Assembly: GCA_013388645.1 (NCBI GenBank)
Contig: JACAEV010000197.1
Location: 1-62,059 of the forward strand
DNA length: 62,059 nt
From: Syntrophaceae bacterium
GTDB taxonomy: Bacteria > Desulfobacterota > BSN033 > UBA1163
Direction of reading: 5' to 3'
Shown here: positions 19,204 through 60,274 of the stretch, piece after piece
How the letters are laid out: each line of letters opens with the position of its first letter
Position numbering within the stretch: the stretch's first letter is position 1
The notes under the pieces: model-generated
Told to the model about the DNA's origin: nothing
Database searches by the model: none
The model's input: only the letters and a program-made list of their open reading frames with translations
Program-made: the position numbers and the translations under genes

Positions 19204-19208
19204 AAAAC

Positions 19209-20252: not shown

Positions 20253-20339
20253 CGAGGAATAGTGGGGAGATGGGAGGAGAGCTTTAGAAAAGGATAAAAA
20301 CAAGGAATTTGCAGGTAAAAGAGAAAGGAGGAAAAAGAA

Positions 20340-24978: not shown

Positions 24979-25003
24979 CATCATCGAGTAATAAAGGTTC
25001 AAA

Positions 25004-26941: not shown

Positions 26942-27825
26942 CTTATTTCCTGCAATATCTTTTAATTGGTTTCTTGACAGGAGGGTTATATTCCGCCTTT
27001 GCGGTGACAGTTGTTTTAGTTTATAAGGCTACCCATGTCGCAAGTCTAGCCCATGGACAAATTCTGGCCTTTGGTGCTGTTTTTTTCTACTGGTGTATAG
27101 CGGTCTTACAGTTGCCAATATCGGTTAGTTTTCTCGTTGCATTGGCTTTGGCGGGGGTTTTAGGATTCATCATCGAACGGTTAACCATGCGCCCGTTAAT
27201 TGGAGAACCCCTCTTTACGAGTTTCCTTATGACCTTCGCGGTATTTATGTTTCTGGACGGAGTTTTCAATTTGTACGTGGCAGGCGAAACCCGTTTTATT
27301 CCCCCATTTCTTCCCCAAGGAAATATGGGTATAGGAAAACTGATTATTGCAGAACAAAGAGCCTCCAACTTTGTAATGACTCTGCTTCCAGCTTTGATTG
27401 TGATTGGTTTTTTTAAATACAGTAAGGTAGGGTTGCGCATGAGAGCAACCGCGGAAAATCATCGGTTGGCACAAAGTGCTGGAATTCGGGTAAAAAATAT
27501 CTTCTCCATTATTTGGATTTTCTCTTCGATATTGGCAGCAGTAGCCGGTATTGGTTGTGCGACGATCATGAATATTCACTATCCTTTGCCTTACAATGGT
27601 CTCAAAGGGCTTCTGGTAGCCCTGGTCGGTGGTTTAGATTCAATCGGGGGGGCAATTCTGGCGGGTTTGCTTGTGGGAGTGATTGAGAGCTTGGCTGCAG
27701 GCTATGTTGATCCTCTAACCGAAGTCGGAGGAACAAGTGAGGTGGTCGCCTATGTTCTACTCCTCTTTATCTTATTAGTGAAGCCCTATGGTTTATTTGG
27801 ATTAGCTCGTATTGAAAGAATATAG
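26938..27825 (+). CDS. ABC permease, LivH family
   Basis: 295 aa and polytopic. Motif 'GGLDSIGGAILAGLLVGVIE'. The ATGA overlaps the ligase stop. Confidence 0.9.
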   Translation: MTYFLQYLLIGFLTGGLYSAFAVTVVLVYKATHVASLAHGQILAFGAVFFYWCIAVLQLPISVSFLVALALAGVLGFIIERLTMRPLIGEPLFTSFLMTFAVFMFLDGVFNLYVAGETRFIPPFLPQGNMGIGKLIIAEQRASNFVMTLLPALIVIGFFKYSKVGLRMRATAENHRLAQSAGIRVKNIFSIIWIFSSILAAVAGIGCATIMNIHYPLPYNGLKGLLVALVGGLDSIGGAILAGLLVGVIESLAAGYVDPLTEVGGTSEVVAYVLLLFILLVKPYGLFGLARIERI

Positions 27826-27847
27826 TTAGAAAGGAAAGTTAGAAGTC

Positions 27848-28894
27848 ATGAGACCTTGCGGTGTTTTTGATGAAAGATACGAGACCGATATGGCTATTAT
27901 TAGGACATGGCAACACTGGACAATATTGCTTGGAACCATCGGTTTGCTTTTTTGTATTCCACTTTTTGCATCTTATTACTTTATTAGTTTGCTAAACGGT
28001 ATTTTCATTACCTCGGTTATGGTGTTAGGACTACAGATTATCATGGGGTATTGTGGACAGGTTTCTTTGGGTCAAGCAGCTTTTATGGCAGTAGGGGGGT
28101 TTGTTTCGGCTTTGCTTACACTAAAGCTCGGATTATCTTTCTGGCTTGCCTTACCTCTTTCAGGTCTGTCTGCTGGTTTAATCGGTCTCATTGGTGGAGC
28201 ACCCTCTCTTCGGGTAAAAGAGTTTTACCTGGCTATGAGTACAGTCGCCATACATTATGTGATTATCTGGCTCATTACGCATCTCAAGATTACTGGTTAT
28301 ACGCAAGGGTTGGTTGCCCCTCCCCCAGCGATCGGCAACTTTGTATTCAATACTGAAGAGCGAATGTACTATATTATTTTGATGGTCACACTGTTATTGA
28401 CCTTTTACGCACGAAATCTAATAAGAGGGAACGTCGGTAGGATATTTATTGCAATTCGGGATAATGACCTTGCCGCCGAGGTAATGGGAGTAAATATTTT
28501 TAAGTATAAGATGCTCGCATTTTTTGTTTCATGTTTTTATGCTGGCATTGCAGGAAGTCTTCTGGCTCACTGGTACCAGATTGTAAATGTAGAACAGTTT
28601 ACACTCAACCACGCCCTTCTCTATATCGGAATGATCATTGTAGGTGGCATGGGAAGCATTCCGGGCGCTTTCTTTGGAGTATTTCTTCTGCGCCTACTGG
28701 ATGAATTTGTGTTGACTGTTTCTCCAATGTTGGCCCACAAGTTTCCACAACTAGGTATGACTCCTGCCGCTTCCCTGGGTGTTATGTGCTTTGGCATCGT
28801 TCTCGTACTTTTTCTACTCTACGAGCCACGGGGGATAGCACATCGGTGGGAAATCTTTAAGGCATCTTATCGAATTTACCCTTATCGAAAGTAA
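27848..28894 (+). CDS. ABC permease, LivM family
   Basis: 348 aa. Motifs 'GYCGQVSLGQAAFMAVGGF' and 'IAIRDNDLAAEVMGVN'. Confidence 0.9.
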   Translation: MRPCGVFDERYETDMAIIRTWQHWTILLGTIGLLFCIPLFASYYFISLLNGIFITSVMVLGLQIIMGYCGQVSLGQAAFMAVGGFVSALLTLKLGLSFWLALPLSGLSAGLIGLIGGAPSLRVKEFYLAMSTVAIHYVIIWLITHLKITGYTQGLVAPPPAIGNFVFNTEERMYYIILMVTLLLTFYARNLIRGNVGRIFIAIRDNDLAAEVMGVNIFKYKMLAFFVSCFYAGIAGSLLAHWYQIVNVEQFTLNHALLYIGMIIVGGMGSIPGAFFGVFLLRLLDEFVLTVSPMLAHKFPQLGMTPAASLGVMCFGIVLVLFLLYEPRGIAHRWEIFKASYRIYPYRK

Positions 28895-29099
28895 GGCTGC
28901 GAATAACAGGTTTCCTAAAACAGGTGTTCTAAACATGATTGCGGATAAAGATGGTTTTTTACATTTGACATAAAGCTAAATACAAATTCGGAATTCTGAT
29001 GGAGAAAGGAGGGAGATAAAAAAGAAGATATAAAATCACATTGGATATGGAGGAATAGAAAGGGGTTAATTTTACTTATAAAAGAAAGGAGGTTCAAAC

Positions 29100-30314
29100 A
29101 TGAGGGCTCTTAAGATGATAGGATTGTCTATTGTATTTTTGGTTTTTGTATCTATATCTATTTCTTCCTTCGGAGCTGAGAGAGAGGTTGCTTATTTAAG
29201 CTTGGGAGACTACACTGGACCATCTGCTAATACTGGGATCCCCGCCGATAGCGGTTGTGAAGATGGGTTCAAGTATATTAACGACAAAGGAGGAATCCAG
29301 GGTGTAAAGGTAAAATTTATACCGGTGGACACACGTTATGAGGTCGCCAGAGCGGTATCGGCTTACAAACAATTGCGCAAGACACCTAAACTCTTGGTAG
29401 TCGGTTGCCCAGGTACTGCTGTTGGAAAGGGGATCGCGCCTCTGGCTAATGCGGACAAGTTGGTGCAGCTTGCCGTCGCAGATGGCGAATTTGTAGCCAA
29501 CGTTAGTCGTACCTTCATCTGGGGCCAGTGTTACCAAGATGTTTTTGGCAGCATGTTGGACTGGATGGTGAAGGACTGGAGGCAAAAGGGTAAGGCGGGG
29601 TCGCCCACCGTCGGGTATATTTCCTGGGATAATGCTTATGGGAGAGAGGCTCTTCGAGGTGGAAAAGAGTATGCAGAAAAGATTGGGGTTAAGCTTCTCC
29701 CGCCGAAGTTATTCCCCCCAGGAACAGCTGACCACAGTCAGTATTTGGCTTTTTTAAAGGATGCCGATTACATCTTTGCCGGGACGCCTGACCCCACTCC
29801 AGCCGCCGTAATAAGGGACGCTTACCGGCTTGGTATGACCAAGAACATTCAGTTTTTTTGTGACACGTTTGGGCCGACAATGTCCGGAGGAGTAAAAGCA
29901 TACAATAAAGAACTGCAGGGAACCATAGTGGTAAGCTGGTTCCTCAGAGGCCTTGAAGCTCGGAATCATCCATTAGCTAAAGAGCTATGGACGAAGTACC
30001 GTAAAAGACCAATGAGCGAGATGTCGCCTCTTTATCAAATAGGTATTGTTTGGGCTCTAAACTATGCAGCTGCCCTTGAGATCGCACTAAAGGAAGTCGG
30101 TTATGATAAAATAACACCAGATGATATGTATAAGGCATATCAGAAGCTCACAGGACGAAATATCTCTCAGGGGATGCAAGGATTATGCGCTTACAGTCCC
30201 ACCTCAAGACGTGGGAGTGAAGAAGTTAAATTCTACCAGGTGAAAGGGGAGGAACTAGTTCCTATCTCAGGATGGACTAAGTGCCCAGATACCGTCTCGC
30301 TTCATAAATTCTAA
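29100..30314 (+). CDS. Substrate-binding protein (LivK/Peripla_BP_6 type), highly diverged from the 20340..21551 copy
   Basis: 404 aa. It has a signal peptide, 'GFKYINDKGGIQGVKVKFIPVDTRYE' and a strong AAAGGAGG RBS. Confidence 0.8.
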   Translation: MRALKMIGLSIVFLVFVSISISSFGAEREVAYLSLGDYTGPSANTGIPADSGCEDGFKYINDKGGIQGVKVKFIPVDTRYEVARAVSAYKQLRKTPKLLVVGCPGTAVGKGIAPLANADKLVQLAVADGEFVANVSRTFIWGQCYQDVFGSMLDWMVKDWRQKGKAGSPTVGYISWDNAYGREALRGGKEYAEKIGVKLLPPKLFPPGTADHSQYLAFLKDADYIFAGTPDPTPAAVIRDAYRLGMTKNIQFFCDTFGPTMSGGVKAYNKELQGTIVVSWFLRGLEARNHPLAKELWTKYRKRPMSEMSPLYQIGIVWALNYAAALEIALKEVGYDKITPDDMYKAYQKLTGRNISQGMQGLCAYSPTSRRGSEEVKFYQVKGEELVPISGWTKCPDTVSLHKF

Positions 30315-30351
30315 CCAGTTGACCTAAGCAAAAGAGAAAGGAGGAAGCAAA

Positions 30352-30852
30352 ATGAATCTTTTTTCTGCGAAATGGATGGTGATTGTTTTAATGGTCCTAT
30401 TTTCTATCTCGTTCTCATCTGGCACATTGTCAGCTCAGGCGAAATTAACGATCAAACCTGACAAAACAGTTTTGTCCCAACAACTCCTTAAAGAACCTAT
30501 TAAGTTTTTCGGATCAGGTTGGGGAGCAGGGGAGACCGTAGTGATAGAATTGTTAATTCCCAAAGGGATAGAAATGAGAGGCCTTGGTAAAGAAGAAGAC
30601 AGGGTAGGCATTGCGGTTGGCACTTGTAATGAAAAGGGGGATTTCGAAACGACAATGGGTACCCTCGCCACACTAAATTGGTTTTTTCAGGTAGCCTGGA
30701 TATTTGATGATAAAACCACATCCATGAAGTCAAGTTTTGAAAAGGCTAATCCTCTCCCTCCTGGGGAATATGAAATTTTAGCGACCGGAGCAATCACTGA
30801 TAAGGAATGCCGTGTTTATTTCGAAATATTGCCACACACAAAAGGGCAATAG
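30352..30852 (+). CDS. Secreted hypothetical protein (166 aa) inside ABC module 2
   Basis: A strong GAAAGGAGGAAG RBS and a signal peptide 'MNLFSAKWMVIVLMVLFSISFSSGTLSAQA'. I recognised no family motif. Confidence 0.6.
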   Translation: MNLFSAKWMVIVLMVLFSISFSSGTLSAQAKLTIKPDKTVLSQQLLKEPIKFFGSGWGAGETVVIELLIPKGIEMRGLGKEEDRVGIAVGTCNEKGDFETTMGTLATLNWFFQVAWIFDDKTTSMKSSFEKANPLPPGEYEILATGAITDKECRVYFEILPHTKGQ

Positions 30853-31095
30853 GAACCAAGTAGAATTCAAGCTTAGGAAACTATAATACTGTCGAGTGAG
30901 GAGTTTTGGATAGTCCGGTCTTTATTGCTTTTGTATTAGCAAGAATATAATGTACGACCGAATTGCGAAACCTATTTTCTTTTAGTTTTCCTTCCGTCGA
31001 TAGATTATTCATAAAAATCGGGAGAATGAGCTTTAATCTAAAAAGCTTGAGTTAAGGTGGGTATCCTGTATTACTCCAATTTTGGAGGTTAGCGA

Positions 31096-31902
31096 ATGAG
31101 TGTTATCCTCAGCCTAAAAAATATCGAAGTGACATATAGCGAAGTCATCTTAGTCGTTAAAGGTGTGACCCTGGAGGTTCAAGAAGGAAGCATTGTCACA
31201 CTTTTAGGTGCAAATGGTGCTGGTAAAACTACAATCCTGAAGGCGATCTCTGGCCTTCTGGTCTCGGAACTGGGAAAAGTTACTGAGGGAAGTATTGAAT
31301 TTAGGGGAATTCCTATTCAGAGAGAAAGCCCGGAAAATATTGTCAAGATGGGAATAGTTCATGTAATGGAGGGACGTCCTTCATTTGATCAATTGACCGT
31401 GGAAGAAAATCTCATAGTGGGTGCGTCGTCTCGAACAAATAGACCGACAGAGATTAAGAAGGACCTTGAAAGGATCTATAGTTATTTTCCTAAGCTCAAG
31501 GCTTTGCGAAAAAAGATTAGTGGGTATATTTCCGGAGGGGAGAAGCAAATGCTGGTAGTTGGGCGGGGACTAATGGCACACCCCAAGATGATGTTATTAG
31601 ATGAGCCCTCTCTTGGTCTTGCTCCTCTTATTGTTAAGGAGATATTTGAGATTATTGAATTCGTTAATAAGGAAGCAGGTACTTCAATTCTTTTAGTCGA
31701 ACAGAATGCCTTGGCAGCTCTTTCCATTTCGAGTTATGGATACATCATGGAAAATGGAAGGATCGTAATGGATGGTGTGGCAGCTAACCTGAAAGATAAC
31801 GAGGATATTCGGGAATTCTATTTAGGACTCAGCAAAGTTGGAAAAAGGAAAAGCTATAGGCATGTCAAGCATTATCGTCGCAGAAAAAGATGGTTAGGTT
31901 AA
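31096..31902 (+). CDS. ABC transporter ATP-binding protein, LivF-like, with a basic C-terminal tail (paralog of 14754..15548)
   Basis: Motifs 'GANGAGKTT', 'ISGGEKQML' and 'MMLLDEPS'. The tail is 'LGLSKVGKRKSYRHVKHYRRRKRWLG'. Confidence 0.9.
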   Translation: MSVILSLKNIEVTYSEVILVVKGVTLEVQEGSIVTLLGANGAGKTTILKAISGLLVSELGKVTEGSIEFRGIPIQRESPENIVKMGIVHVMEGRPSFDQLTVEENLIVGASSRTNRPTEIKKDLERIYSYFPKLKALRKKISGYISGGEKQMLVVGRGLMAHPKMMLLDEPSLGLAPLIVKEIFEIIEFVNKEAGTSILLVEQNALAALSISSYGYIMENGRIVMDGVAANLKDNEDIREFYLGLSKVGKRKSYRHVKHYRRRKRWLG

Positions 31903-33582: not shown

Positions 33583-35481
33583 ATGAGCGCCGAAACAATT
33601 GCAATGGCATCTCCAGGAACCGAGGGATATGTTTTGGGAAATGAAGCGGTCGCCAGAGGCGCAATTGAGTCAGGAGTATGGTTTGTTGCCTGCTATCCTG
33701 GGACACCATCTTCAGAGATATCGGATACCCTATGCAAGCTTTCTGGAGAATTTGGGTATGAATTCGAGTATTCCGCGAATGAAATCGTTGCAACTGAAGC
33801 CGCGGCAGGAGTTGCCTTATTTGGTGGTAAAAGCATGGTGATTTTCAAGGGGGCTGGGTTTTTCGTTGCCTCCGATGCATTGTTCCATCTGGTATTGGGT
33901 AGATTGTGTGGCCCCATGGTGATAGTCGCCTGTGATGATCCCTCGATGCACAGCTCAAGCGATGAAGTGGATCTGCGAATGCTCGCACAAGCCGGGTCAA
34001 TTATTACTTTGGTCCCGTCGAACGTAACCGACGCAAAAGAGATGACCATAGAGGCATTCAAGCTTTCCGAGCTGATGCGTGTGCCCGTATTGATACGTAT
34101 GAGCACACGCTTGTGCCATCAAAGGGGATTTATTAAGCTCGGCGATATACCCAAGAGAAGGGATAATAGGATGGATTGGGATCTCTTAAAAGGTAAATGG
34201 GAGCGCTTTGTTCCCATGGGGGGAGATCCCGTAAGGGGAGAGATGTTAAAGAGCATCGAAGTTATTAGGAGAACGAAAAACATTTTTGAAGACAATAAGT
34301 TAAATAAGCTTGTTAGGGCTAAGTCGGATATCGGTATATTGACCTGTGGCGTCACTTACGGTTACAGCCAAGAAGCAATAAAATTATTGGATATCGAAGC
34401 TTCTATGCTTAATGTGGGGACCATTTACCCACTTCCTGAAAAACTACTAAAAGAATTTATTCAAGAGCTAAAAACTCTCATTGTTGTCGAAGAATTGAGA
34501 CCCTATCTGGAGTCATACATCAGAGCTTTAGCCAAGGATGTAAAACCAGACCTACAGATCTTTGGGAAATGGAATGGCTATTTTCCACAGGCTTTTGAGT
34601 ATGATACGACAATAGTGATGAACTCCATCTCAAAGGCCATGAATATAAATGTGCCGATGGAGTACAAAGAGATAGAGAAGAGAACGGATTTCGTTAAAGA
34701 GTTTACTTTTCCACGAGATCCAGTATTTTGTCCCGGATGTCCGCACAGAGCTACATTTTACGCCGTTAAAAAAGTTACCAAAGATAAAGCGATCATTACG
34801 CAGGATGTTGGGTGTTATTCGATAGGGCTAACTCCTCCTTTCAAAATGGGAGACATTGTACTTTGCATGGGTGGATCCATAGGTGTCGCCTGCGGAATAA
34901 GTTATTTCAATGATAGACCTATCATCGGTTTTATTGGGGATTCAACTTTTTTCCATGCTGGTCTACCAGGCCTTATCAATGCCGTCCATAATCAAGCAGA
35001 TTTCACTCTAATTATTCTGGATAACGGAACAACTGGAATGACCGGATTCCAACCACATCCTGGGAATGATAGTCGAGGGAGAGAAAGGCTTGCCAAGAAG
35101 ATTGACATAGAAAATATTGTTAAGGCTATTGGTGTAGAAGATATAAAAGTGGTTGATAGCTATAATATAAAGGAGTTGATGGATGCGACTAGCGATGCAA
35201 TAGCTTTTAGAGGAGTATCCGTTATTATCTCCAGAAGGGCCTGTTCCATAATAAGTCGAAGAGAAAACCAGAGGAAAGGCCTAAAGGTTGTTGCTTATCA
35301 AATAGATTCGAATAAGTGTGAAGGTTGTTGGCTCTGTATTGAAAAATTCGGGTGTCCTGCTATTGAAAGGGATGGAGAAGTTGTAAAAATTCTTTCTGAA
35401 TCCTGTAATGGATGCAGCGTTTGTGCTCAAATTTGTCCATTCAATGCCATCTTTAAAGAGGATACCAATGGACAAATATGA
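33583..35481 (+). CDS. iorA: Indolepyruvate:ferredoxin oxidoreductase alpha subunit
   Basis: 632 aa. Motifs 'GNEAVARGAIESGVWFVACYPGTPSSEI' and the TPP region 'GDSTFFHAGLPGLINAVHN'. The C-terminal 2x[4Fe-4S] motifs are 'CEGCWLCIEKFGCP' and 'CNGCSVCAQICP'. Confidence 0.88.
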   Translation: MSAETIAMASPGTEGYVLGNEAVARGAIESGVWFVACYPGTPSSEISDTLCKLSGEFGYEFEYSANEIVATEAAAGVALFGGKSMVIFKGAGFFVASDALFHLVLGRLCGPMVIVACDDPSMHSSSDEVDLRMLAQAGSIITLVPSNVTDAKEMTIEAFKLSELMRVPVLIRMSTRLCHQRGFIKLGDIPKRRDNRMDWDLLKGKWERFVPMGGDPVRGEMLKSIEVIRRTKNIFEDNKLNKLVRAKSDIGILTCGVTYGYSQEAIKLLDIEASMLNVGTIYPLPEKLLKEFIQELKTLIVVEELRPYLESYIRALAKDVKPDLQIFGKWNGYFPQAFEYDTTIVMNSISKAMNINVPMEYKEIEKRTDFVKEFTFPRDPVFCPGCPHRATFYAVKKVTKDKAIITQDVGCYSIGLTPPFKMGDIVLCMGGSIGVACGISYFNDRPIIGFIGDSTFFHAGLPGLINAVHNQADFTLIILDNGTTGMTGFQPHPGNDSRGRERLAKKIDIENIVKAIGVEDIKVVDSYNIKELMDATSDAIAFRGVSVIISRRACSIISRRENQRKGLKVVAYQIDSNKCEGCWLCIEKFGCPAIERDGEVVKILSESCNGCSVCAQICPFNAIFKEDTNGQI

Positions 35482-36073
35482 GATATTAGTCGCTGGTGTT
35501 GGGGGACAAGGGGTTATTTTTATTAGCAATGTATTAGGATACGCAGCTCAACGTGCTGGTTATAAAAGAGTTGTGGGTGGAGAAATTCATGGCCTGGCCC
35601 AAAGGGGGGGGAGTGTCGCAAGCTACGTCAGGTTTGGAGAAGGTGTTTACGGACCGATTGTACCGTTGGGCTGTGCCGATATAATCATAGGTCTAGAGTT
35701 TATGGAAGGATTAAGACACATTAATCGATTGTCGAAAAATGGCGCACTTGTACTCTCCAATGTTAGGGTACCCACAATGGGTATGATGGTCAATAATCTT
35801 GCATACCCCAATTCGTTAAATGTTTTATCTAAATTACAGACGTTATTTGATAGAGTATTTTTATTCGAATCTCGGAACACCCCATGTCATTTTGGAAGTT
35901 TGGGTTTGGAAAATATGATCCTCTTGGGTGCAATCGTTAACCATTTTCTTGATTTCCCGATTGGAGAGGAAGATATCCAAGAAAGTATTAAAACGCTTAC
36001 TAAGAAAAATATGGTTGAAAGAAATTTAGAAGCTTTTCAAGCAGGGATGAAACTTCGCCCCTTAATAACATAA
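35468..36073 (+). CDS. iorB: Indolepyruvate:ferredoxin oxidoreductase beta subunit
   Basis: 'MDKYEILVAGVGGQGVIFISNVLGYAA...GEIHGLAQRGGSV'. ATG 35468 overlaps the iorA stop by 14 nt. The track ORF starts further upstream, inside iorA. Confidence 0.85.
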   Translation: MDKYEILVAGVGGQGVIFISNVLGYAAQRAGYKRVVGGEIHGLAQRGGSVASYVRFGEGVYGPIVPLGCADIIIGLEFMEGLRHINRLSKNGALVLSNVRVPTMGMMVNNLAYPNSLNVLSKLQTLFDRVFLFESRNTPCHFGSLGLENMILLGAIVNHFLDFPIGEEDIQESIKTLTKKNMVERNLEAFQAGMKLRPLIT

Positions 36074-36096: not shown

Positions 36097-37251
36097 ATGC
36101 CAAGAAATAATGTTTTCAGCAAAGTTGAACGGTATTATAGAGACTATGGTGCCAGGGCGAAGGAACTGAAGGCTCAAGGGATAAAGGTAATCGCCTATCT
36201 TTGTTCTCTTACTCCCATAGAAATCATAACAGCAGCGGGATTCCTGCCTTTAAGAATAAGAGGTGACACCAGAGAACCTATAACCATAGGAGATACAAAA
36301 TTAGAGACTATAGCGTGTCCTTTTTTGAGAAGTTGCTTTGATGTTTCACTTAAAGGAAGATATGATTTTTGTGATGGTCTGATTATTCCGCATGCATGCG
36401 ATAGCATTACAAGAACGTATAGCGTCTGGCGTTATTCGATTGGAATAACTTATTCTCATTTTGTAAATCTACCTCATAAAGTCAGCGAGACATCGTTGAA
36501 ATTCTTTAAGGCGGAGCTGACAACATTCAAAAATAGCCTCGAAAGGTTTGCTGACAAGAAGATCTCAGATGAAGCCCTAGCGGAAGCGATAGATTTGAAT
36601 GTAGAAAATCGAAAGAAAGTAAAGGCTTTATATCAATCAAGGAAATCCAACCCACCCCCTATTTCAGGGGCTGAAATAGGAAAAATATTAACCGCTGGTA
36701 TGGGTTTACCTGTGTCTGAATCGAATGAGTTGTTTGATGAGTGTTTAAGGCAGATCAAGCTAAAAAAAGAGATTCCTTTGAAGAAAAGACCTCGGATCAT
36801 GATTTTAGGTAGTTGTTTGGACAATGTTGACCTTATTACTTTTGTTGAGGATGCCGGTGCTGATGTTGTTGTTGATAGCTTATGTATGGGAACGAGAGAT
36901 TACTGGCGCGATATCGGATCTGTGGATGATCCAATGCGTGCAATTGCGCTTCTATATCTGAATAAAATGAATTGTCCCAGGACCTACAGAGAGAAGGTGG
37001 GTAAGAAATTTAGGGAGGATGCAGAGGCAAGATTCGGTGATATCGGTTTGTTAATTAATGAATTCAAGGTCGAGGGTGTCATTCTGTATGTTTATAGAAA
37101 CTGCGACCCATTTGGTTTTGAAGTACCCGCAAGAAAGGAATATCTTTCTTCGCTTCATATCCCAGTTCTATACCTGGAAGGTGAATACTCTTCAGGAGCT
37201 ATTGGGCATTTAAAGACAAGGATCAAGGCATTTCTTGAGTTGATTGGATAG
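36097..37251 (+). CDS. HGD-D family protein (2-hydroxyacyl-CoA dehydratase / benzoyl-CoA reductase BcrC-BadD-HgdB family), smaller subunit
   Basis: 384 aa. Motifs 'YYRDYGARAKELKAQGIKVIAYLCSLTPIEIITAAGFLPLRIRG', 'ETIACPFLRSCFD', 'PHACDSITRTY' and 'RNCDPFGFE'. Confidence 0.8.
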   Translation: MPRNNVFSKVERYYRDYGARAKELKAQGIKVIAYLCSLTPIEIITAAGFLPLRIRGDTREPITIGDTKLETIACPFLRSCFDVSLKGRYDFCDGLIIPHACDSITRTYSVWRYSIGITYSHFVNLPHKVSETSLKFFKAELTTFKNSLERFADKKISDEALAEAIDLNVENRKKVKALYQSRKSNPPPISGAEIGKILTAGMGLPVSESNELFDECLRQIKLKKEIPLKKRPRIMILGSCLDNVDLITFVEDAGADVVVDSLCMGTRDYWRDIGSVDDPMRAIALLYLNKMNCPRTYREKVGKKFREDAEARFGDIGLLINEFKVEGVILYVYRNCDPFGFEVPARKEYLSSLHIPVLYLEGEYSSGAIGHLKTRIKAFLELIG

Positions 37252-37262
37252 GAAAAAGCGGA

Positions 37263-38615
37263 ATGACTGACATACAAAACAATGCTGGAAGAGGAAGAAG
37301 AAGAGGACATGCTACGCGAGCTGCGACTAAGATTCCCTACATGGTGAAAAGCTCCATCATCGATACTTTAAAGGCGAAAGAAAAGGGGAAAATCCTCGCC
37401 TACACATTTGTTTATTGTTGCTACGATGAAATTATAAGGGCCATGGATATAATACCTATTTGGACTGAGAATTACTCTGGAGTATGCGGCGCTAAGAGGG
37501 ATGCCGAAAGATTCCTTAGTAGGGCTGAATCATTGGGATTTTCACGTTCTCTTTGCACTTATGCATTATGTGGAATAGGCTTTGACCAATGGCGGGAAGA
37601 ACTCGGTACTATGCCTCAGGATGCTCCTTGGGGGGGGCAGATGAAGCCCGATCTTATGTTATCAAGTGGGCAGGTCATTTGTGATCCGAGGTATAAATGG
37701 TATCAGGCAGTACAACAATATATGCCAGATGTCCCCATTTATACTGTTGATTTACCATGGCCTGTTTATGAGGATGATTTGGATTTACCTTCTGTTGAAT
37801 CCTATTATATTGAATATCTTAAGGAAGAATTGCATGGGCTGGTTAAGTTTTTGGAGAAGCATACTGGAAGAAAGATGAATTGGGACAAGCTGAGTGAGTT
37901 AGTTGATTTGACCGAAAGGACATGGAATTTAATCTGGGAGACATATGAACTCAGACGGACTGTTCCTACACCTATGGATACAGGAGATGCGATGAACACG
38001 ATGGTGCCCATCCTTTATATGATGGGTACCCAGGAAGGATATGACTTCTTTTTAGAATTAAATAAAGAGCTAAAGGAGAAAATTAAGAGGAAAGAAGGGG
38101 TTATTTCGAATGAAAAATTTAGACTACTATGGGGTGGTGGATTACCCCCATGGTTCGCCTTAGGTGACTTTAATTATTTTAACAGTAAGGGAGCTGTTTT
38201 TCCGGTTGAGGTAACCTATCGCGTCATTGAACCTATCAATGACCTGAACATACCTAATACGAATGGTCCTGTTGAACGTATAGCCTGGAGGTGGCTTAGG
38301 TATTGGACGTATTGGTACAAGAAGGCAAAAAGTAGGCCAGGCTCTGAGCCAGACGTAGAACGTTTAATACAATACATTGAAGACTACCGAATCGATGGTG
38401 TTGTCGTGCACTTAGCCTCTTCGTGTCGAACAGCACATCTGAGTCTTATTTGGCAATTAAGTCAATTAAAAAAGATATACAAACAAATCCCTTGCTTATT
38501 TCTAGAGAGTGATATGATCGATATAAAGCAATATTCAAAATTACATACAAGAAATATGATAGATGCGTTCATTGAAATCTTGGAATCCAACAAAGAAAAA
38601 AGGGGAAATTGCTAA
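37263..38615 (+). CDS. HGD-D family protein (HgdA/BcrB-like), larger subunit
   Basis: 450 aa. Motifs 'ILAYTFVYCCYDEIIRAMDIIPIWTENYSGVCGAKRDAERFLSRAESLGFSRSLCTYALCGIG' and 'DGVVVHLASSCRTAHLS'. Confidence 0.78.
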   Translation: MTDIQNNAGRGRRRGHATRAATKIPYMVKSSIIDTLKAKEKGKILAYTFVYCCYDEIIRAMDIIPIWTENYSGVCGAKRDAERFLSRAESLGFSRSLCTYALCGIGFDQWREELGTMPQDAPWGGQMKPDLMLSSGQVICDPRYKWYQAVQQYMPDVPIYTVDLPWPVYEDDLDLPSVESYYIEYLKEELHGLVKFLEKHTGRKMNWDKLSELVDLTERTWNLIWETYELRRTVPTPMDTGDAMNTMVPILYMMGTQEGYDFFLELNKELKEKIKRKEGVISNEKFRLLWGGGLPPWFALGDFNYFNSKGAVFPVEVTYRVIEPINDLNIPNTNGPVERIAWRWLRYWTYWYKKAKSRPGSEPDVERLIQYIEDYRIDGVVVHLASSCRTAHLSLIWQLSQLKKIYKQIPCLFLESDMIDIKQYSKLHTRNMIDAFIEILESNKEKRGNC

Positions 38616-40424: not shown

Positions 40425-42089
40425 ATGGAAGAAAAGGAAAAGGATTCCGACGTGATGGATAGTTATCATGAGAAACCTACTGGGTTTAAAACTTGGTCTG
40501 GTCTTCCACTAAAGAATTGGTATGGTCCTGGGGATGTCTCAACAATTAATTATGGGAAGAATATAGGGGATCCTGGTAACTTCCCTTATACCAGGGGAAT
40601 CCATCAGGATATGTTTAGGGGCCGCTATTGGACACGTAGGGAGGTAACTGGATATGGGACCCCTGAAGAGACCAATCAGAGGTTAAAGTACTTGATCAAG
40701 GAAGGTTCTGGGGGACTCAATGTCATTCCTGATAATCCCAGCATCATGGGAATCGATTCTGATCATCCACGGGCGAAGGGTGAGGTAGGTGTGCAAGGAG
40801 TTCCAATGTGCACTCGCCAAGATATGGAACTGCTGATGGAAGACATACCTCTTGAAAAGATCAGTATGTCCCTTATAGTTTCTTCTACTCAAACACCAGT
40901 AGCGCTTTCCCAATATATTGCTCTCGCAGAGAGTAGAGGGTTGAAGCCGTCTGATTTGGCGGGAACCACTCAAAACGATCCCATTCACTGCCGATATGCT
41001 GGATTCGCCAATTCCTCACCCATCAACCTTGCATTAAAAACTGGAGTGGATGTCATTGAATACTGCACCCTGAATATGCCCCGATGGTACCCTATTAATG
41101 TAAATATGTATGACCTCAGAGAACAGGGTATTAACGCTGCACAAGAGCTTGCTTTCGGTTTCTCCATGGCCATGCTGTATATTCAGGGTGTACTTAACAG
41201 AGGTCTCGATATAGACTCATTTGCTCCCAGATTCGCTTTTTACTGTTCGGCTCATATTGATTTTTTTGAGGAAATTGCCAAGTTAAGGGCTGCACGTCGA
41301 ATTTGGGCAAGAATTATGAAGGAGCGGTTCGGAGCTAAGAATCCTAATTCATTAAAATTTAAGTTCGGTATACATACTGCAGGGTGTTCCCTCGTGCCTC
41401 AGCAACCATTGAACAATATTATTCGTGTTGCCTATGAAGCCATGGCCGCGGTGCTGGCCGGTGTTCAATCCCTTCATTGTTGTTCCTATGATGAACCTAT
41501 TGCACTACCTACTGAGGAGTCTGTGAGGCTGGCTATTAGAACTCAGCAAATCTTAGCTTACGAAACAGGTGTGGCTCTTGTTGCTGACCCCTTGGGAGGG
41601 AGCTATTTCATAGAAAACCTGACGGAAGAGATAGAGCAACAGGCGAATATTATCATGGAGAAAATAGAGACCCAAGGAGGGATGAAAAAGGCTCTTCAGA
41701 TGGGGTGGATAGATGCACAAATCGATGAGGCGGCATTGAAATACCAAAGAGAGGTGGAAAATGGGGAACACATTGTGGTGGGATTGAACAAATTTCGAAC
41801 GGATGAGGAGACTTCAGTAGGGAAGGTCCATCGAATTTCCCCGGATTCGGAGGAGAAACAGATTACAAGGCTGAAAAAGCTAAGAGAATCTCGGGACGAA
41901 AAGAAAGTGAAAGATGCTTTAAGGGCGCTCAAGTCAAGAGCGGAAGAAGGAGAAAAAGAAAATTTGATTCCAGCCATGATCGAGGCATCCCGTCAGTACG
42001 CAACAATTGCAGAAATCCTTGGAACTGTTCGGATTGTAATGGGGGAACCATATGATCCTTTGGGGGTATTGAGCCACCCATTTTTTTGA
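40425..42089 (+). CDS. Acyl-CoA mutase large (substrate-binding TIM-barrel) subunit, methylmalonyl-CoA mutase family, divergent
   Basis: 554 aa. Motifs 'FPYTRGIHQDMFRGRYWTRREVTGYGTPEETN', 'GLNVIPDNPS', 'GTTQND' and 'RIWARIM'. There is no C-terminal B12 domain. Confidence 0.8.
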   Translation: MEEKEKDSDVMDSYHEKPTGFKTWSGLPLKNWYGPGDVSTINYGKNIGDPGNFPYTRGIHQDMFRGRYWTRREVTGYGTPEETNQRLKYLIKEGSGGLNVIPDNPSIMGIDSDHPRAKGEVGVQGVPMCTRQDMELLMEDIPLEKISMSLIVSSTQTPVALSQYIALAESRGLKPSDLAGTTQNDPIHCRYAGFANSSPINLALKTGVDVIEYCTLNMPRWYPINVNMYDLREQGINAAQELAFGFSMAMLYIQGVLNRGLDIDSFAPRFAFYCSAHIDFFEEIAKLRAARRIWARIMKERFGAKNPNSLKFKFGIHTAGCSLVPQQPLNNIIRVAYEAMAAVLAGVQSLHCCSYDEPIALPTEESVRLAIRTQQILAYETGVALVADPLGGSYFIENLTEEIEQQANIIMEKIETQGGMKKALQMGWIDAQIDEAALKYQREVENGEHIVVGLNKFRTDEETSVGKVHRISPDSEEKQITRLKKLRESRDEKKVKDALRALKSRAEEGEKENLIPAMIEASRQYATIAEILGTVRIVMGEPYDPLGVLSHPFF

Positions 42090-42134
42090 ATAAGTTATCA
42101 ACATTTATAATGAAATTTCTGTACGGAGGGAATA

Positions 42135-43655
42135 ATGAAGAATGAGAAGTTTGATGCGATTGTGATTGGTGCGGGGGTGGGGGGACCCACAGCAGGAGCC
42201 ATCCTTGCGAAAAAAGAAGGGATGAAAGTCCTTGTACTTGAAAAGGCCTCTCGAGTTGGGGGAAGAGATATTTCCTTTAATTTCAGCGAGGAAGACCCAG
42301 AGACCTATAAACGATTGATTGCTAATGCGGCTCATACTTGGTATGTCAAGTCGGAACCGGATCTAACGGAACTTTTTAAGCAGGGGTATCTAAAGGGATA
42401 TAGTTTTGAAGCAGGAATTCATACTCTTCAAATCACCGAAAGAGGACGGACAAATGTTTGTCTCACCTACTTGGGGAAACCATTGACTCTCTTCCCTGCT
42501 GTGAGTGCAGGGTGGTGGCATGGCGGTGAATTATACCATTTCGAAAATGGCTCTGAGAGGGGGGGGAATTTCCCCTGGATGAATGAGAGAGACAAGGAGG
42601 AGTGTGGAAAGATCAACCGGTTGATGGTAAAAATTTCAGCTGATGAGGCTCATTCCTATGATCATATAAGTTTGAAGGAATGGATGGAGGTGAGAACTGA
42701 TAATCAAAATACCAAAGACTTCCACTACGTGAATGGTACGATGAACTGTACTATCAATGATCCCGCAAACATTTCTGCAGGGGATTGTATTCTTATGAAT
42801 CGGGCTGTGGCAAGAGCAGGTAAACGATTTTCATATGGTGGGTGTTCAACACCAGGCCTTCCAGGTTTCGTACAAATCCCGTTGAAATTATGTGAGGTAA
42901 TTGAGGAGCATGGCGGGAAAGTTGTAACTCGGGCAACGGTGAAGGAGGTATTAATTGAGAATAGAAAGGTGAAAGGAGTCCTTGTGGAGATTGAAGGAGC
43001 AGAAGAAAAGATCGAATGTCCAATTGTCATCAATTCTGGGATGGTTAATGAGATGTTCAATTACATTCCTGAAAACCACTTTCCTTATACTTTCGTCAAA
43101 CGGGTGAAAGGCTTTTGGCGGGCTGGAATAGGTGCGGTCTATTTTGGACTCGGCCACAAGATTGTAAAAGAACATTTGACTTTTGTTCCTAAAATTGCAG
43201 GCAAAGAAGACGGTTTCGACAGCGATGTCCGCATGGGGTTCTGGGATAGCTCAGGCATGGATCCAGGCCGCGCCCCGGAAGGCAAGCAGTTATTGGATGC
43301 GTATGTATCCCTTGTAGATATAGAGGCTCATAACCTGGAACTCGTAAATTTGGCATATGAGAAAATGAAAAAATTCATGGAAGATAATTATCAGGGCTTT
43401 AAACAGGCACTCGAATGGACTCTGTATACTGTTTCTGACAGTCTCGTACCAGTCGCCCAGGCACCTTATCAAGTTGGGGATGCAAGACCCAAAGCAAAAA
43501 GTCCTTTTATTGAAGGGCTCTATATGGCATCAGACAGTTCGGAGTGTTCTATGGCTGCAAATGATGCAGCCGTCCATGCCGGAATCATTGCAGCAAGCCG
43601 TATTAGTGGAAAGGATTATGTAAGCGAAATTCTACCTGAATATCTCAGAGATTAA
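42135..43655 (+). CDS. FAD-dependent oxidoreductase, phytoene-desaturase (CrtI)-like family
   Basis: 506 aa. The dinucleotide fold is 'KFDAIVIGAGVGGPTAGAILAKKEGMKVLVLEKASRVGGR'. A GGAGGG RBS is present. Confidence 0.75.
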   Translation: MKNEKFDAIVIGAGVGGPTAGAILAKKEGMKVLVLEKASRVGGRDISFNFSEEDPETYKRLIANAAHTWYVKSEPDLTELFKQGYLKGYSFEAGIHTLQITERGRTNVCLTYLGKPLTLFPAVSAGWWHGGELYHFENGSERGGNFPWMNERDKEECGKINRLMVKISADEAHSYDHISLKEWMEVRTDNQNTKDFHYVNGTMNCTINDPANISAGDCILMNRAVARAGKRFSYGGCSTPGLPGFVQIPLKLCEVIEEHGGKVVTRATVKEVLIENRKVKGVLVEIEGAEEKIECPIVINSGMVNEMFNYIPENHFPYTFVKRVKGFWRAGIGAVYFGLGHKIVKEHLTFVPKIAGKEDGFDSDVRMGFWDSSGMDPGRAPEGKQLLDAYVSLVDIEAHNLELVNLAYEKMKKFMEDNYQGFKQALEWTLYTVSDSLVPVAQAPYQVGDARPKAKSPFIEGLYMASDSSECSMAANDAAVHAGIIAASRISGKDYVSEILPEYLRD

Positions 43656-43681
43656 AAAGCAGGAAGGAAAAGGATTGGATA

Positions 43682-44077
43682 ATGGCACTTAAAAGAAAGG
43701 TTAGAATTCTAATTGCCAAAATTGGGCTTGATGGTCATGATAGGGGAGCAAAAGTCCTGGCCTCAATGTTGAGGGATAATGGTTACGAAGTCATTTATCT
43801 GGGTCTTTATAATACCCCCGAAATGGTTGTTCAAAGTGCCATCCAGGAAGCGGTTGATATCATTGGCATTAGCTTTCATTCGGGGGAACATTTAACATTG
43901 ACTCCGATATTAATGAATAAACTCCGCGAACATCAGCTGGGCGAAATTCCCGTTATTATAGGAGGTATCATCCCAATGGAGGATGAGAACATATTGATAG
44001 GAATGGGTGTCAAACGGGTTTTTCGGGGTTCACTGGTTAGTGAAGTCATAGAATATTTGAATCATTATTTCAAATGA
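43682..44077 (+). CDS. Cobalamin-binding small subunit of the acyl-CoA mutase
   Basis: 131 aa. 'RILIAKIGLDGHDRGAKVLASMLRDNGYEVIYLG' carries the DxHxxG motif, with 'IGISFHSG' and 'VIIGGIIP'. Confidence 0.85.
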   Translation: MALKRKVRILIAKIGLDGHDRGAKVLASMLRDNGYEVIYLGLYNTPEMVVQSAIQEAVDIIGISFHSGEHLTLTPILMNKLREHQLGEIPVIIGGIIPMEDENILIGMGVKRVFRGSLVSEVIEYLNHYFK

Positions 44078-54211: not shown

Positions 54212-54566
54212 GAAATAAACAACCGATCCTAAGTTTGTTAACAGGAATGGATGAATTCGATTTTGTCCACGAGAAATAATTAAAAGCCCTTCTCCCTTTA
54301 TCATGGTTTCCGCCTTGTCTGCATTTAGTTCTTTAATAGGTTATTCAGGACTCACCATATTTGCCTTTCCTCCTGGAGAATATTTTTTCTCCGTCTACTC
54401 CCAATTTGTGGGCCCCTCTACACATTGGCGAGATGCAAGACTGCTAAGACTTTTATTAAGATAAGGAGAGGTGCTCTCTGTCAGAATCCAAGAAGACATC
54501 TATGGAAGTCGGTGTAAAAATAAATTCAATAAATTTGAAAATCTAATTCAATCAATGGAGGATGGG

Positions 54567-55709
54567 ATGGGTCCTTTAATTGGTTACAGGGTCGTGGAAA
54601 TAGTAGGGGTGGGTCCTGGGCCCATGTGTGCCATGTTACTGTCCGACATGGGGGCAGAAGTTTTGCGGATTGAGCGTATTGGAGCTGGAGGTCTCGATAT
54701 AGGAATCCCAGCTAAGTTCAATCTCTTAAATCGGGGTCGACAATCCGTAGCCATCGACTTAACAAAAAAGGAAGGAGCTGAGACTGTCCTTCGTTTGGTG
54801 GAGCGAGCAGATGCCCTGATTGAAGGCTTCCGTCCTGGTGTTGCCGAGCGACTTGGGATTGGTCCAGAGGCATGCTTCGTTCGGAACCCAAAATTGATTT
54901 ATGGTCGTATGACCGGCTGGGGACAAGAAGGCCCACTCGCTCATACCGCAGGTCATGACATTAATTATATTTCTTTGGTCGGCGCACTGCATGCCATTGG
55001 ACGAGAGGGAGAGAGGCCGGTGCCACCGCTTAATCTTGTAGGTGATTTCGGAGGGGGTGCATTGTACCTTGCATTTGGAATTGTTTGCGGCCTTCTGGAG
55101 ACTTCGAAGTCTGGTAAAGGACAGGTAGTGGATGCTGCAATGGTAGATGGAGTTGCCTCGTTGATGACTTTATTTTTTGGCCTCAAGGCTGCAGGCATCT
55201 GGACAAGCCAGCGAGGTGAAAACCTCTTAGATACAGGTGCCCATTTTTACGACGTCTATGAAACTGCAGATGGAAAATATATCTCTATTGGTTCAATAGA
55301 ACCCAAGTTTTATGCAGAACTTTTACGACTTCTTGATATAGGTGAGGAGGACCTCAGCCATCAAATGGATCGTAAGAGGTGGCCAGAGATGCATGAACGT
55401 CTCAAGGTTGTATTTAAAACAAAAACCCGCGATGAATGGTGTGCCATTATGGAAACGTCTGATGCCTGCTTCGCCCCGGTCCTATCAATGGATGAATCCC
55501 CAAACCATCCCCACAATAAAGCGCGTGGCACGTTTATAGAGATCGATGGGGTGATTCAACCAGCTCCTGCACCACGTTTCAGCCGGACTAGACCTGAAAT
55601 CCAAGGTCCGCCATCCGAGCCTGGTCAGAATACAAATGAGGCTCTTGCTGACTGGGGGTTTTCTAAGGAGGAAATCATTAAGTTGCGGAAAGCAGGAGTA
55701 ATCCAATAA
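54567..55709 (+). CDS. Alpha-methylacyl-CoA racemase-type family III CoA-transferase fold enzyme
   Basis: Motifs 'GPLIGYRVVEIVGVGPGPMCAMLLSDMGAEVLRIER', 'GHDINYISLVGALHAIGREGERPVPPLNLVGDFGGGALYLAFG'. The start is ATG 54567 after GGAGGA, or alternatively 54555. The track ORF starts at 54471. Confidence 0.8.
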   Translation: MGPLIGYRVVEIVGVGPGPMCAMLLSDMGAEVLRIERIGAGGLDIGIPAKFNLLNRGRQSVAIDLTKKEGAETVLRLVERADALIEGFRPGVAERLGIGPEACFVRNPKLIYGRMTGWGQEGPLAHTAGHDINYISLVGALHAIGREGERPVPPLNLVGDFGGGALYLAFGIVCGLLETSKSGKGQVVDAAMVDGVASLMTLFFGLKAAGIWTSQRGENLLDTGAHFYDVYETADGKYISIGSIEPKFYAELLRLLDIGEEDLSHQMDRKRWPEMHERLKVVFKTKTRDEWCAIMETSDACFAPVLSMDESPNHPHNKARGTFIEIDGVIQPAPAPRFSRTRPEIQGPPSEPGQNTNEALADWGFSKEEIIKLRKAGVIQ

Positions 55710-60103: not shown

Positions 60104-60274
60104 AAAAGATTAGAATTTATTTTCTTCATAACACTTGACCATTCAAACCCTTAAAAAGCCTTCCACGGTCATGTGGATTGAAGAGAATGCTTGTGTTCTA
60201 TTTAATATGTTACACCTCTGAGAAGCGGAGACTTGAATGGAGGTTATCGTTGCGTCAAGAGATGGAGGAAAGTA

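Follow-up and report, generated by a model that had tools for sequence, protein, structure and literature searches.

A split acyl-CoA mutase with a non-canonical pocket and an interposed flavoprotein in a catabolic island of a Syntrophaceae bacterium

The forward strand of contig JACAEV010000197.1 from a Syntrophaceae bacterium (assembly GCA_013388645.1) carries at positions 40425-44077 three tightly packed genes, 3.65 kb in total, that encode the large subunit of an acyl-CoA mutase, a flavoprotein, and the small subunit of the mutase. The whole 62,059-nucleotide stretch of DNA that was analysed is referred to as the window. As far as can be judged from its sequence, the mutase is very probably an active adenosylcobalamin (AdoCbl)-dependent acyl-CoA mutase of new specificity. 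In the alignments, every position that defines specificity in methylmalonyl-CoA mutase (MCM), isobutyryl-CoA mutase (ICM), and 2-hydroxyisobutyryl-CoA mutase (HCM) is replaced. The preferred interpretation, to which a probability of about 0.55 is assigned, is that the unit forms a two-subunit AdoCbl-dependent carbon-skeleton mutase with a flavoprotein partner, which acts on a bulky branched or alicyclic acyl-CoA in the anaerobic breakdown of acids.

Organization of the three-gene unit

The genes of the unit are separated by gaps of 45 bp (large subunit to flavoprotein) and 26 bp (flavoprotein to small subunit), each with a Shine-Dalgarno sequence, and the ribosome-binding site GGAGGAG precedes the ATG of the large subunit. 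The gene of a D-2-hydroxyacid dehydrogenase stops 14 bp upstream of the mutase start, and that of an acyl-CoA dehydrogenase (ACAD) begins 40 bp past the small subunit. The first-pass annotation of this DNA had described a split mutase in the region. Both subunits are present as proposed, but the flavoprotein gene between them had been overlooked. The motifs that were quoted in its support, FPYTRGI, WTRREVTGY, GTTQNDPIHCRYAGFAN, and NMYDLREQG, are encoded in 40425-42089 (+), and GLDGHDRGAKV is encoded in 43682-44077 (+).

The large subunit matches the Pfam family PF01642 (MM_CoA_mutase) over the complete profile (positions 1-512 of 512, E 1.7e-175), and scores 566 bits against TIGR00641, which has a cut-off of 304. 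A phmmer search of all PDB sequences ranks HCM (4r3u_A, E 6.7e-128) ahead of human MCM (2.6e-104), the MCM of Propionibacterium shermanii (1req_A, 1.6e-92), and IcmF (1.4e-53). The AlphaFold2 (AF2) model of the large subunit has a predicted local distance difference test score (pLDDT) of 73, with low values at residues 1-75 and 318-329, and its top Foldseek matches are HCM, MCM, and IcmF. The small subunit matches the B12-binding family PF02310 (E 5.8e-22) and TIGR00640 (134.7 bits, cut-off 57), and its closest solved structures are 2yxb and the small subunit of HCM (4r3u_C, E 4.1e-30). The window contains no second mutase large subunit with which that of the unit could pair.

Active site of the large subunit

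The phmmer alignments of the large subunit to 1req_A, human MCM, and HCM 4r3u_A are ungapped through all three motifs that contain diagnostic residues, and residue numbers were re-derived from the chain-position counts in the phmmer output. The segment WTIRQYAGF of MCM corresponds to WTRREVTGY, which replaces Tyr89 by Val74 and the preceding Gln88 by Glu73. The segment QNDILKEFMVRNTY of MCM corresponds to QNDPIHCRYAGFAN, in which Gly193 is aligned with Arg207, and GYHMQEAG corresponds to MYDLREQG, with Asp230 in the place of His244. In a MAFFT alignment of 266 sequences, the segment 186-194 moves by one residue and the equivalent of Arg207 is Phe194. Under either alignment, the residue at the Arg207 position is neither arginine nor glutamine. 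Misalignment was considered as the source of the changed residues and rejected: the ungapped HMMER alignments to three solved structures agree with several MAFFT alignments, which cover 121-266 sequences, to within one residue at the Arg207 site. The changes of Tyr89, Arg207, and His244 and the lack of the Phe/Gln pair of ICM, which had been read by eye in the first-pass annotation, are thereby corroborated.

The replacements extend beyond these three positions. Asp117 of HCM, which is alanine in MCM, corresponds to Ile101, Gln330 of MCM to His317, and the MCM pair Thr365-Asn366 to Cys352-Cys353. Cys274 and Cys353 are new invariant cysteines at or near the cavity, and Cys321 and Cys352 are mostly kept. 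Residues 187-192 form a short helix in the AF2 model, and Arg190 is therefore positioned one turn ahead of the Arg207-equivalent site. The PDB entries 5REQ (Y89F) and 1E1C (H244A) document that Tyr89 and His244 of MCM have been studied as catalytic residues.

The remainder of the MCM active site is retained. Arg82, Arg87, and Arg283, which presumably bind the CoA phosphates, correspond to Arg65, Arg72, and Arg269. Gln197 and Tyr243, which are taken to contact the thioester, correspond to Gln183 and Tyr229, and Glu370, the assumed ligand of the deoxyadenosine ribose, corresponds to Glu357. His364 is preserved as His351. Each of Arg65, Arg72, Arg269, Gln183, Tyr229, and Glu357 is found in 173-186 of the 186 members of the clade described below.

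A clade with a near-invariant pocket

Residue counts (Table 1) were obtained from 186 full-length homologues, which form a clade with the window enzyme, and from 79 canonical mutases from genome loci. The canonical set comes from the scan of a genome collection in which 77 of 80 loci are canonical; only loci L003-L005 hold clade members. The clade homologues are 54-92% identical to the window enzyme, and originate from uncultured Desulfobacterota, Dehalococcoidia, Binatia, and Rokubacteria. All the named members are from metagenome-assembled genomes. The 120 best homologues (57-92% identity) share the motifs WTxRE[VL]xG[YF], N[LMA]YD[LMW]RE, and QSLHCC. A further search, with the most divergent representative as the query (P0185, 54% identity), adds a Binatia/Rokubacteria branch with the same signature. 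The residue pattern is not a product of chance, because it is near-invariant in the 186 homologues. Two of the three loci of the genome-collection scan that hold clade members, L003 (2-3064) and L005 (6657-10066), contain tandem arrays of two or three large-subunit paralogues, in which one clade member is accompanied by a divergent copy.

The first-pass annotation had supposed that the enzyme belongs to no clade of known specificity, and the sequence comparisons bear this out. Clade members score at least 689 bits against the window enzyme, whereas canonical mutases reach at most 551 bits. In a neighbour-joining tree of 161 sequences, the clade is monophyletic in 198 of 200 bootstraps, and is nested in an assemblage with about 50 further representatives, which are non-canonical and unnamed. 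The clade excludes HCM, the two MCMs, and the canonical sequences with Tyr/Arg or Phe/Gln pairs. The window enzyme is 40.6% identical to HCM, 38.4% and 36.3% to the two MCMs, and 46-47.5% to canonical split mutases. Its scores against the NCBIfam equivalog models are far under their cut-offs: 452 versus 876 bits for MCM (NF006944) and 234 versus 1500 bits for IcmF (NF045497). Databases label the clade members "methylmalonyl-CoA mutase" or "acyl-CoA mutase large subunit family protein". A full-text literature search found no characterised member of the clade, and no paper on the clade or on a pair of a mutase and a phytoene-desaturase-like protein.

An exhaustive search for representatives of the MM_CoA_mutase superfamily retrieved 19,446 cluster representatives at E<=1e-3. 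Fewer than half of the best 150 (P0185-P0334) have a residue equivalent to His244, and the others contain pocket signatures such as YD, YN, and YV. Because so many representatives lack His244, the clade of the window enzyme is one of many uncharacterised ones.

Table 1. Features of the three-gene unit and of the genes related to it. Residue counts are for 186 clade members and 79 canonical mutases.
Feature	Coordinates	Strand	Basis, context, or residue counts
Acyl-CoA mutase large subunit (substrate-binding, TIM-barrel), 554 aa	40425-42089	+	Pfam, NCBIfam, PDB matches
Glu73-Val74, at MCM Gln88-Tyr89 (ICM Phe80, HCM Ile90)	40641-40646	+	73: clade Glu 186/186, canonical Gln or Met; 74: clade Val 165, Leu 21, canonical Phe or Tyr
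Ile101, at HCM Asp117 (Ala in MCM/ICM-type)	40725-40727	+	Clade Ile 186/186, canonical Ala 79/79
Arg190-Tyr191-Ala192-Gly193-Phe194, short helix with the Arg207/Gln198-equivalent position	40992-41006	+	190: clade Arg 134, Gln 49, Leu 3; 193: clade Gly 184/186, canonical (Arg207 site) Arg or Gln
Tyr229-Asp230, at MCM Tyr243-His244	41109-41114	+	230: clade Asp 185/186, canonical His 79/79
His317, at MCM Gln330	41373-41375	+	Clade His 185/186, canonical Gln 79/79
Cys352-Cys353, at MCM Thr365-Asn366	41478-41483	+	353: clade Cys 185/186, canonical Asn 74/79
Flavoprotein of the phytoene-desaturase/amine-oxidase fold, FAD-binding, 506 aa	42135-43655	+	Pfam, AF2, Foldseek
B12-binding small subunit, 131 aa	43682-44077	+	PF02310, TIGR00640
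DxHxxG motif (DGHDRG), small-subunit residues 17-22; base-off/His-on cobalamin ligation	43730-43747	+	
Double TetR regulator (two TetR_N domains)	7021-8193	-	Orthologues 55-64% identical head the unit operon in L001 and L118
MenB/BadI-like crotonase, BadH-like short-chain dehydrogenase/reductase, cyclohexane-1-carbonyl-CoA-dehydrogenase-like ACAD	8693-11459	+	NCBIfam, orthology
Liv-type ABC importer with embedded acyl-CoA ligase (set a)	14754-21551	+	Pfam; in L001 and L118, the unit is directly followed by orthologues (55-70% identical)
Alpha-methylacyl-CoA racemase homologue	54471-55709	+	407 bits, E 1e-120 to Mycobacterium tuberculosis MCR 1x74

Replacement of the catalytic histidine

To our knowledge, no acyl-CoA mutase that has been characterised lacks His244. 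The identity of the residue at this position is correlated with that at the position of Gln330. Among 147 cluster representatives, aspartate at the 244 position is never paired with glutamine at the 330 position. A basic residue (His, Arg, or Lys) occupies the 330 position in 10 of the 14 representatives with aspartate at 244, versus 29 of the 133 others (Fisher p = 2.8e-4). It is possible that Asp230 and His317 are a compensating pair, in which Asp230 orients His317 or balances its charge, and His317 acts in place of His244.

The interposed flavoprotein

The flavoprotein has a weak full-length match to the Pfam family Amino_oxidase (residues 27-490), a match to NAD_binding_8, and an intact N-terminal GxGxxG...E motif for FAD binding. 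Its AF2 model has a pLDDT of 95. The best Foldseek matches are the uncharacterised archaeal oxidoreductases 3ka7 and 3nrn, the plant phytoene desaturase (PDS) 5mog, and the CrtI-like 4rep, with TM scores of about 0.7 and sequence identities of 14-20%. Against TIGR02734 (crtI_fam), the protein scores 33 bits, with a cut-off of 238, and only the N-terminus is aligned. The desaturases CtmAB and the delta-24 desaturases were considered as models of the flavoprotein and set apart on the basis of their description as a separate class, which binds its flavin covalently and is not similar to PDS (PMC11061730).

The flavoprotein family is narrow, with about 30 clusters of at least 68% identity, two at 54%, and none above 34% beyond these. 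The gene order of large subunit, flavoprotein, and small subunit is shared by the window and by loci L001, L118, and L119, in which the mutases are 72%, 78%, and 70% identical to that of the window. In L087 (mutase 68% identical), the large-subunit and flavoprotein genes are followed by the contig end. Seven further pairs of mutase and flavoprotein homologues are found on contigs of equal size. Clade members at 55-60% identity have the large and small subunits only, or a large subunit beside an ABC importer, and members without the flavoprotein are common. The flavoprotein is thus a fixed partner of the mutase in one subclade. A metagenome scan with the flavoprotein alignment, in which the generic GxGxxG pattern was used, yielded only one remote homologue.

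A homologue with 32% identity occurs in Dactylosporangium (L088) together with a double TetR regulator, an alpha-methylacyl-CoA racemase-like protein, a ligase, a short-chain dehydrogenase/reductase (SDR), and an ACAD; the locus has no mutase. Because this homologue belongs to an acyl-CoA operon that lacks a mutase, the flavoprotein probably acts on a substrate of the acyl-CoA type and not on cobalamin.

Gene context

The window constitutes a catabolic island of about 55 kb on one strand. Two blocks of genes, both of which are present in the window at 7021-21551, enclose the unit in L001 and L118. The first block comprises the divergent double TetR regulator, the MenB/BadI-like crotonase, the BadH-like SDR, the cyclohexane-1-carbonyl-CoA-dehydrogenase-like ACAD, a thiolase, and further hydratases. 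The second block is formed by the Liv-type ABC importer with its embedded long acyl-CoA ligase. Orthologues of the blocks are 51-84% identical across the loci. Those of the crotonase and the ACAD (68-84%) are encoded beside the unit in L001, L118, and L119, and those of the SDR (71-82%) in L001 and L118; L087 contains weaker matches. The double TetR regulator recurs at 826-1995 of L001, at 3554-4690 of L118, and at 6793-7920 of the actinomycete locus L088, beside the remote flavoprotein homologue. The same homologue adjoins a gene that is 50.7% identical to the racemase homologue of the window. The racemase homologue points to metabolism of 2-methyl-branched acyl-CoAs in the island, and is probably linked to the three-gene unit.

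Two paralogous Liv-type importer sets, at 14754-21551 and 24196-31902 (+), each include an acyl-CoA ligase of 615-645 aa (AMP-binding_C_3). Importer set c is orthologous to a set beside a lone mutase of the clade in L085. The island also encodes five further ACADs, two electron transfer flavoprotein (ETF) pairs, several ligases, and a family III CoA-transferase. The segment 55793-57290, which separates the racemase gene from the second of these ETF pairs, contains only short open reading frames (64-103 aa on the + strand and 113 aa on the - strand).

In the window, the unit is flanked upstream by a protein of the indolepyruvate:ferredoxin oxidoreductase type (IOR), an HGD-D pair, a nitroreductase, and the D-2-hydroxyacid dehydrogenase, and downstream by an ACAD and ETF. 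The HGD-D pair (36097-38615, +) is closer to BzdN/BzdO of benzoyl-CoA reductase (172 and 88 bits) than to HadBC, a 2-hydroxyisocaproyl-CoA dehydratase, and no gene for its ATPase/activator (BcrAD_BadFG) is present anywhere in the window. In L119, an HGD-D set is encoded 6 kb upstream of the unit and includes an activator. Anaerobic alpha-oxidation, in which an ACAD with ETF would be followed by a reverse 2-hydroxyacyl-CoA dehydratase, the D-2-hydroxyacid dehydrogenase, and IOR, was considered as the pathway of the unit. It was downgraded because the HGD-D pair is nearer to BzdN/BzdO, the window lacks an activator, and the genes are not conserved beside the unit. The alpha and beta subunits of the IOR-type protein are encoded at 33583-36073 (+); the beta open reading frame, which starts at 35408, overlaps that of the alpha subunit by 74 bp, and the public gene call starts at about 35468. 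In L121, the operon of an ethylbenzene-dehydrogenase-type molybdenum hydroxylase (1747-7179; alpha subunit 691 bits to 2ivf_A) is positioned directly upstream of a Binatia-type member of the clade.

Cofactor and chaperone genes

The first-pass annotation had noted the lack of a gene for a MeaB-type G-protein chaperone. This holds for the window, in which none of the 52 open reading frames scanned with Pfam belongs to the MeaB family (PF03308), and MeaB is also absent from the vicinity of the unit in L001, L118, L119, and L087. It does not hold as a trait of the clade: in L122, a MeaB gene (10111-11166) is located directly downstream of the two subunit genes of a clade member. The cobW-family gene at 60233-60949 was examined as a hidden MeaB and rejected, since it is HypB-like and followed by a HypA-like gene. 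The segment 60233-61324 (+), at the end of the island, encodes this HypB-like G3E GTPase, which is the only G3E GTPase of the window, and the HypA-like zinc protein, both of the kind that serves nickel insertion into hydrogenase.

A homologue of CobA/CobO/BtuR-type adenosyltransferases, encoded at 59708-60103 (+), covers positions 68-171 of the 172-position profile and is devoid of the N-terminal P-loop part. Either truncation of the gene or an unusual start accounts for this. In L004, a full-length adenosyltransferase homologue of 175 aa is encoded 9.4 kb downstream of the mutase. A scan of the window (1-62059) with Rfam detected no family at gathering score, and no cobalamin riboswitch.

Proposed function and alternatives

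The replaced pocket suggests that the substrate is neither of the succinyl type, nor of the short isobutyryl type, nor an ester of the 2-hydroxyisobutyryl type, and would be a bulkier branched or alicyclic acyl-CoA. The assignment to the branched or alicyclic class is tentative, with the odds leaning slightly against it. In the proposed mechanism, an acid would be imported and activated to its CoA ester within a pathway controlled by the TetR regulator, and would be degraded by a modified beta-oxidation with a BadI-type step that cleaves a ring or a C-C bond. The mutase would still catalyse the 1,2-shift of the thioester group, and would thereby carry the thioester beyond a branch point, tertiary or quaternary, at which beta-oxidation is blocked. 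His317, positioned by Asp230, would provide the hydrogen bond or the proton that His244 provides in other mutases. Acting on the substrate or the product of the mutase, the flavoprotein would form a C=C bond or move an existing one. A more specific version of this mechanism is speculative and, on balance, rather unlikely: the unit might be a hitherto undescribed two-enzyme device by which strict anaerobes overcome tertiary or quaternary branch points, in which the mutase, with its Asp230-His317 dyad, shifts the thioester off a blocked carbon and the flavoprotein desaturates the rearranged chain, so that Bad-type beta-oxidation and ring cleavage of alicyclic or isoprenoid-derived (naphthenic-acid-like) acyl-CoAs proceed without O2.

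Several observations weigh against the interpretation as a branched-chain or alicyclic acyl-CoA mutase. The closest characterised enzyme is HCM, and none is nearer than 41% identity. The placement of the changed residues in three dimensions comes from alignment to solved structures and from the structural literature, with a model of only moderate confidence (pLDDT 73), and the roles of Gln330 and Asn366 in MCM are assumed. The pocket gains the polar or charged residues Glu73, Asp230, His317, and Arg190, which fit poorly to a purely hydrophobic substrate. The loss of His244 could mean a different chemistry instead of a relocated acid. The genes at 8693-11459 score 357 (MenB), 299 (BadI), 251 (BadH), and 364 bits (CyhCrbnylCoADH), and because all these scores are under the curated cut-offs, the Bad-like neighbours are relatives of the named enzymes and not the same enzymes. 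The gene context also differs in more distant members of the clade.

The charged residues of the pocket are central to two alternatives. The substrate might be a dicarboxylic acyl-CoA, such as a substituted pimelyl-, adipyl-, or glutaryl-CoA from a BadI-like cleavage, the distal carboxylate of which would be bound by Arg190 and Tyr191, in place of the lost Arg207 and Tyr89 one helical turn away. Ring opening of the BadI type is established to give dicarboxyl-CoA esters, the island encodes a family III CoA-transferase, and the short helix 187-192 carries both Arg190 and the Arg207-equivalent position. Furthermore, residue 190 is arginine in the Desulfobacterota/Dehalococcoidia part of the clade and glutamine in the Binatia part, a difference reminiscent of the exchange of arginine for glutamine between MCM and ICM. 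This alternative is nevertheless unlikely, as neither alignment places Arg190 at the position of Arg207, Arg190 is not conserved throughout the clade, and the pocket residues that are otherwise new (Val, Ile, Gly, and Cys) are apolar. Ranked behind it is an HCM-like chemistry on a larger 2-hydroxy-2-alkyl (tertiary alcohol) or amino-acyl-CoA, with Glu73, Asp230, and His317 as ligands of the hydroxyl or ammonium group. The acidic residues of the pocket would suit such a substrate, HCM is the closest solved and characterised relative, and Val74 resembles Ile90 of HCM. The location of the unit between a D-2-hydroxyacid dehydrogenase and an ACAD/ETF set, near HGD-D proteins, points in the same direction, as do the ethylbenzene-dehydrogenase-type hydroxylase in L121 and a thiamine-pyrophosphate enzyme with a CoA-transferase in L123, near other clade members. 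However, Asp117 of HCM is an invariant isoleucine and Gln208 a glycine in the clade, the 2-hydroxyacid genes are not conserved beside the unit in L001, L118, and L087, and the affinity of the HGD-D pair to BzdN/BzdO over HadBC does not favour a hydroxyacid pathway.

The remaining alternatives concern the activity of the mutase and the role of its partner. That the flavoprotein is a cob(II)alamin reductase which feeds an adenosyltransferase, in place of a MeaB-type system, would be compatible with any mutase substrate. Operons of B12 enzymes such as pdu carry a dedicated cobalamin reductase. The location of the gene between the subunit genes, the lack of MeaB in the window and at four other loci with the unit, and the truncated CobO-like adenosyltransferase gene 15.6 kb downstream agree with this role. 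It is improbable, since remote homologues are encoded in acyl-CoA operons that lack B12 enzymes (L088), the fold is shared with desaturases, isomerases, and oxidases that transform substrates, and clade members without the flavoprotein are common. Even less credence is given to a known mutase, namely MCM, ICM, HCM, ethylmalonyl-CoA mutase (ECM), or pivalyl-CoA mutase (PCM), the residues of which would be unusual but equivalent in function. In its favour, the scaffold as a whole is fully conserved, and Kitanishi et al. reportedly found in 2015 that a small residue at the Tyr89/Phe position favours pivalyl-CoA in IcmF variants. Against this, the residues that determine specificity and catalysis are not those of any of the 79 canonical sequences, which have Phe or Tyr at the Tyr89 position and Arg or Gln at the Arg207 position, and the enzyme belongs to a clade of its own. 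The equivalog scores for MCM and IcmF are far too low, and genes of the propionate, valine, or ethylmalonyl pathways are missing from the context. The least probable possibility is that the protein is not a carbon-skeleton mutase at all, and is instead a dead paralogue or a catalyst of other AdoCbl radical chemistry, such as elimination or the formation of a thiyl radical on Cys353. The otherwise universal His244 is lost and new invariant cysteines are present at or near the cavity, but nothing positive indicates thiyl chemistry. A dead paralogue would not keep a pocket that is constrained in 186 sequences, a dedicated B12-binding subunit whose DxHxxG motif is intact, and, in L122, MeaB; the window also has no second large subunit with which it could pair.

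Implications

The proposal of a mutase of uncharacterised substrate in the first-pass annotation is supported, and was incomplete with respect to Ile101, the replacements of Gln330 by histidine and of Asn366 by cysteine, the flavoprotein, and the gene context. About five natural specificities of acyl-CoA mutases are known (MCM, ICM/IcmF, ECM, HCM/RCM, and PCM), and each new one opened a pathway and was adopted for metabolic engineering. The clade is widespread in uncultured bacteria of sediments and the subsurface (Desulfobacterota, Dehalococcoidia, and Binatia). Reconstructions of propionate metabolism that are based on the "methylmalonyl-CoA mutase" labels of its members are probably wrong. 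The replacement of a histidine that was thought to be universal in the family bears on how the radical rearrangement is controlled. As non-canonical pockets are common in the superfamily, its reaction space is probably much larger than the characterised part. The fixed association of the mutase with the flavoprotein, and with genes for the opening of alicyclic-CoA rings, provides a testable candidate for the degradation of branched and cyclic acids without O2.

Comparison with known systems

HCM of Aquincola tertiaricarbonis (HcmAB, 4R3U) has the same architecture as the window enzyme, with a large subunit of about 560 aa and a small B12-binding subunit of about 135 aa. Both enzymes have an aliphatic residue at the position of Tyr89 of MCM, Ile90 in HCM and Val74 in the window enzyme. 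In contrast, Asp117 of HCM is replaced by Ile101, Gln208 by Gly193, the catalytic histidine by aspartate, the glutamine at the 330 position by histidine, and the asparagine at the 366 position by cysteine, and HCM is outside the clade. HCM operons carry a MeaB-like gene, which the window lacks. MCM (MutB, 1REQ; human MMUT, 2XIJ) has the fold, the mode of cofactor binding, the CoA-phosphate arginines, Gln197, Tyr243, and Glu370 in common with the window enzyme, whereas Tyr89, Arg207, and His244 are all replaced, and the B12 domain is a separate polypeptide in the window.

Like ICM/IcmF and PCM, the window enzyme has apolar residues where MCM has its carboxylate-binding pair, and its substrate would likewise be a branched acyl-CoA that is not carboxylated. 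Acceptance of quaternary carbons is tied to a small residue at the position of Phe80 of ICM (Phe598 of IcmF). However, the window enzyme has no Phe80/Gln198 pair, no His244, and no fused or adjacent G-protein, and is 26-30% identical to ICM/IcmF in structural alignments. The Phe/Gln pair of the ICM type is present in many canonical relatives (WTMRQFAGF ... IAQK) and not in the window enzyme. ECM keeps the carboxylate-binding pair, which is absent from the window enzyme.

The neighbours of the unit, a crotonase, SDR, ACAD, hydratases, thiolase, and ligase, are like those in the Bad/Ali pathways of Rhodopseudomonas palustris (BadHIK/AliAB) and in limonene ring cleavage (Lrc). The Lrc system of Syntrophobacteraceae contains the same kinds of neighbours and no B12 mutase at this point (PMC12583861). 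In the known Bad/Ali and Lrc pathways, there is neither a B12 mutase nor a PDS-like flavoprotein at the place of the unit. The flavoprotein shares the two-domain FAD fold of PDS/CrtI, 3KA7, and 3NRN. In contrast to PDS and CrtI, which belong to carotenoid clusters, it is encoded within a mutase operon of acyl-CoA catabolic islands.

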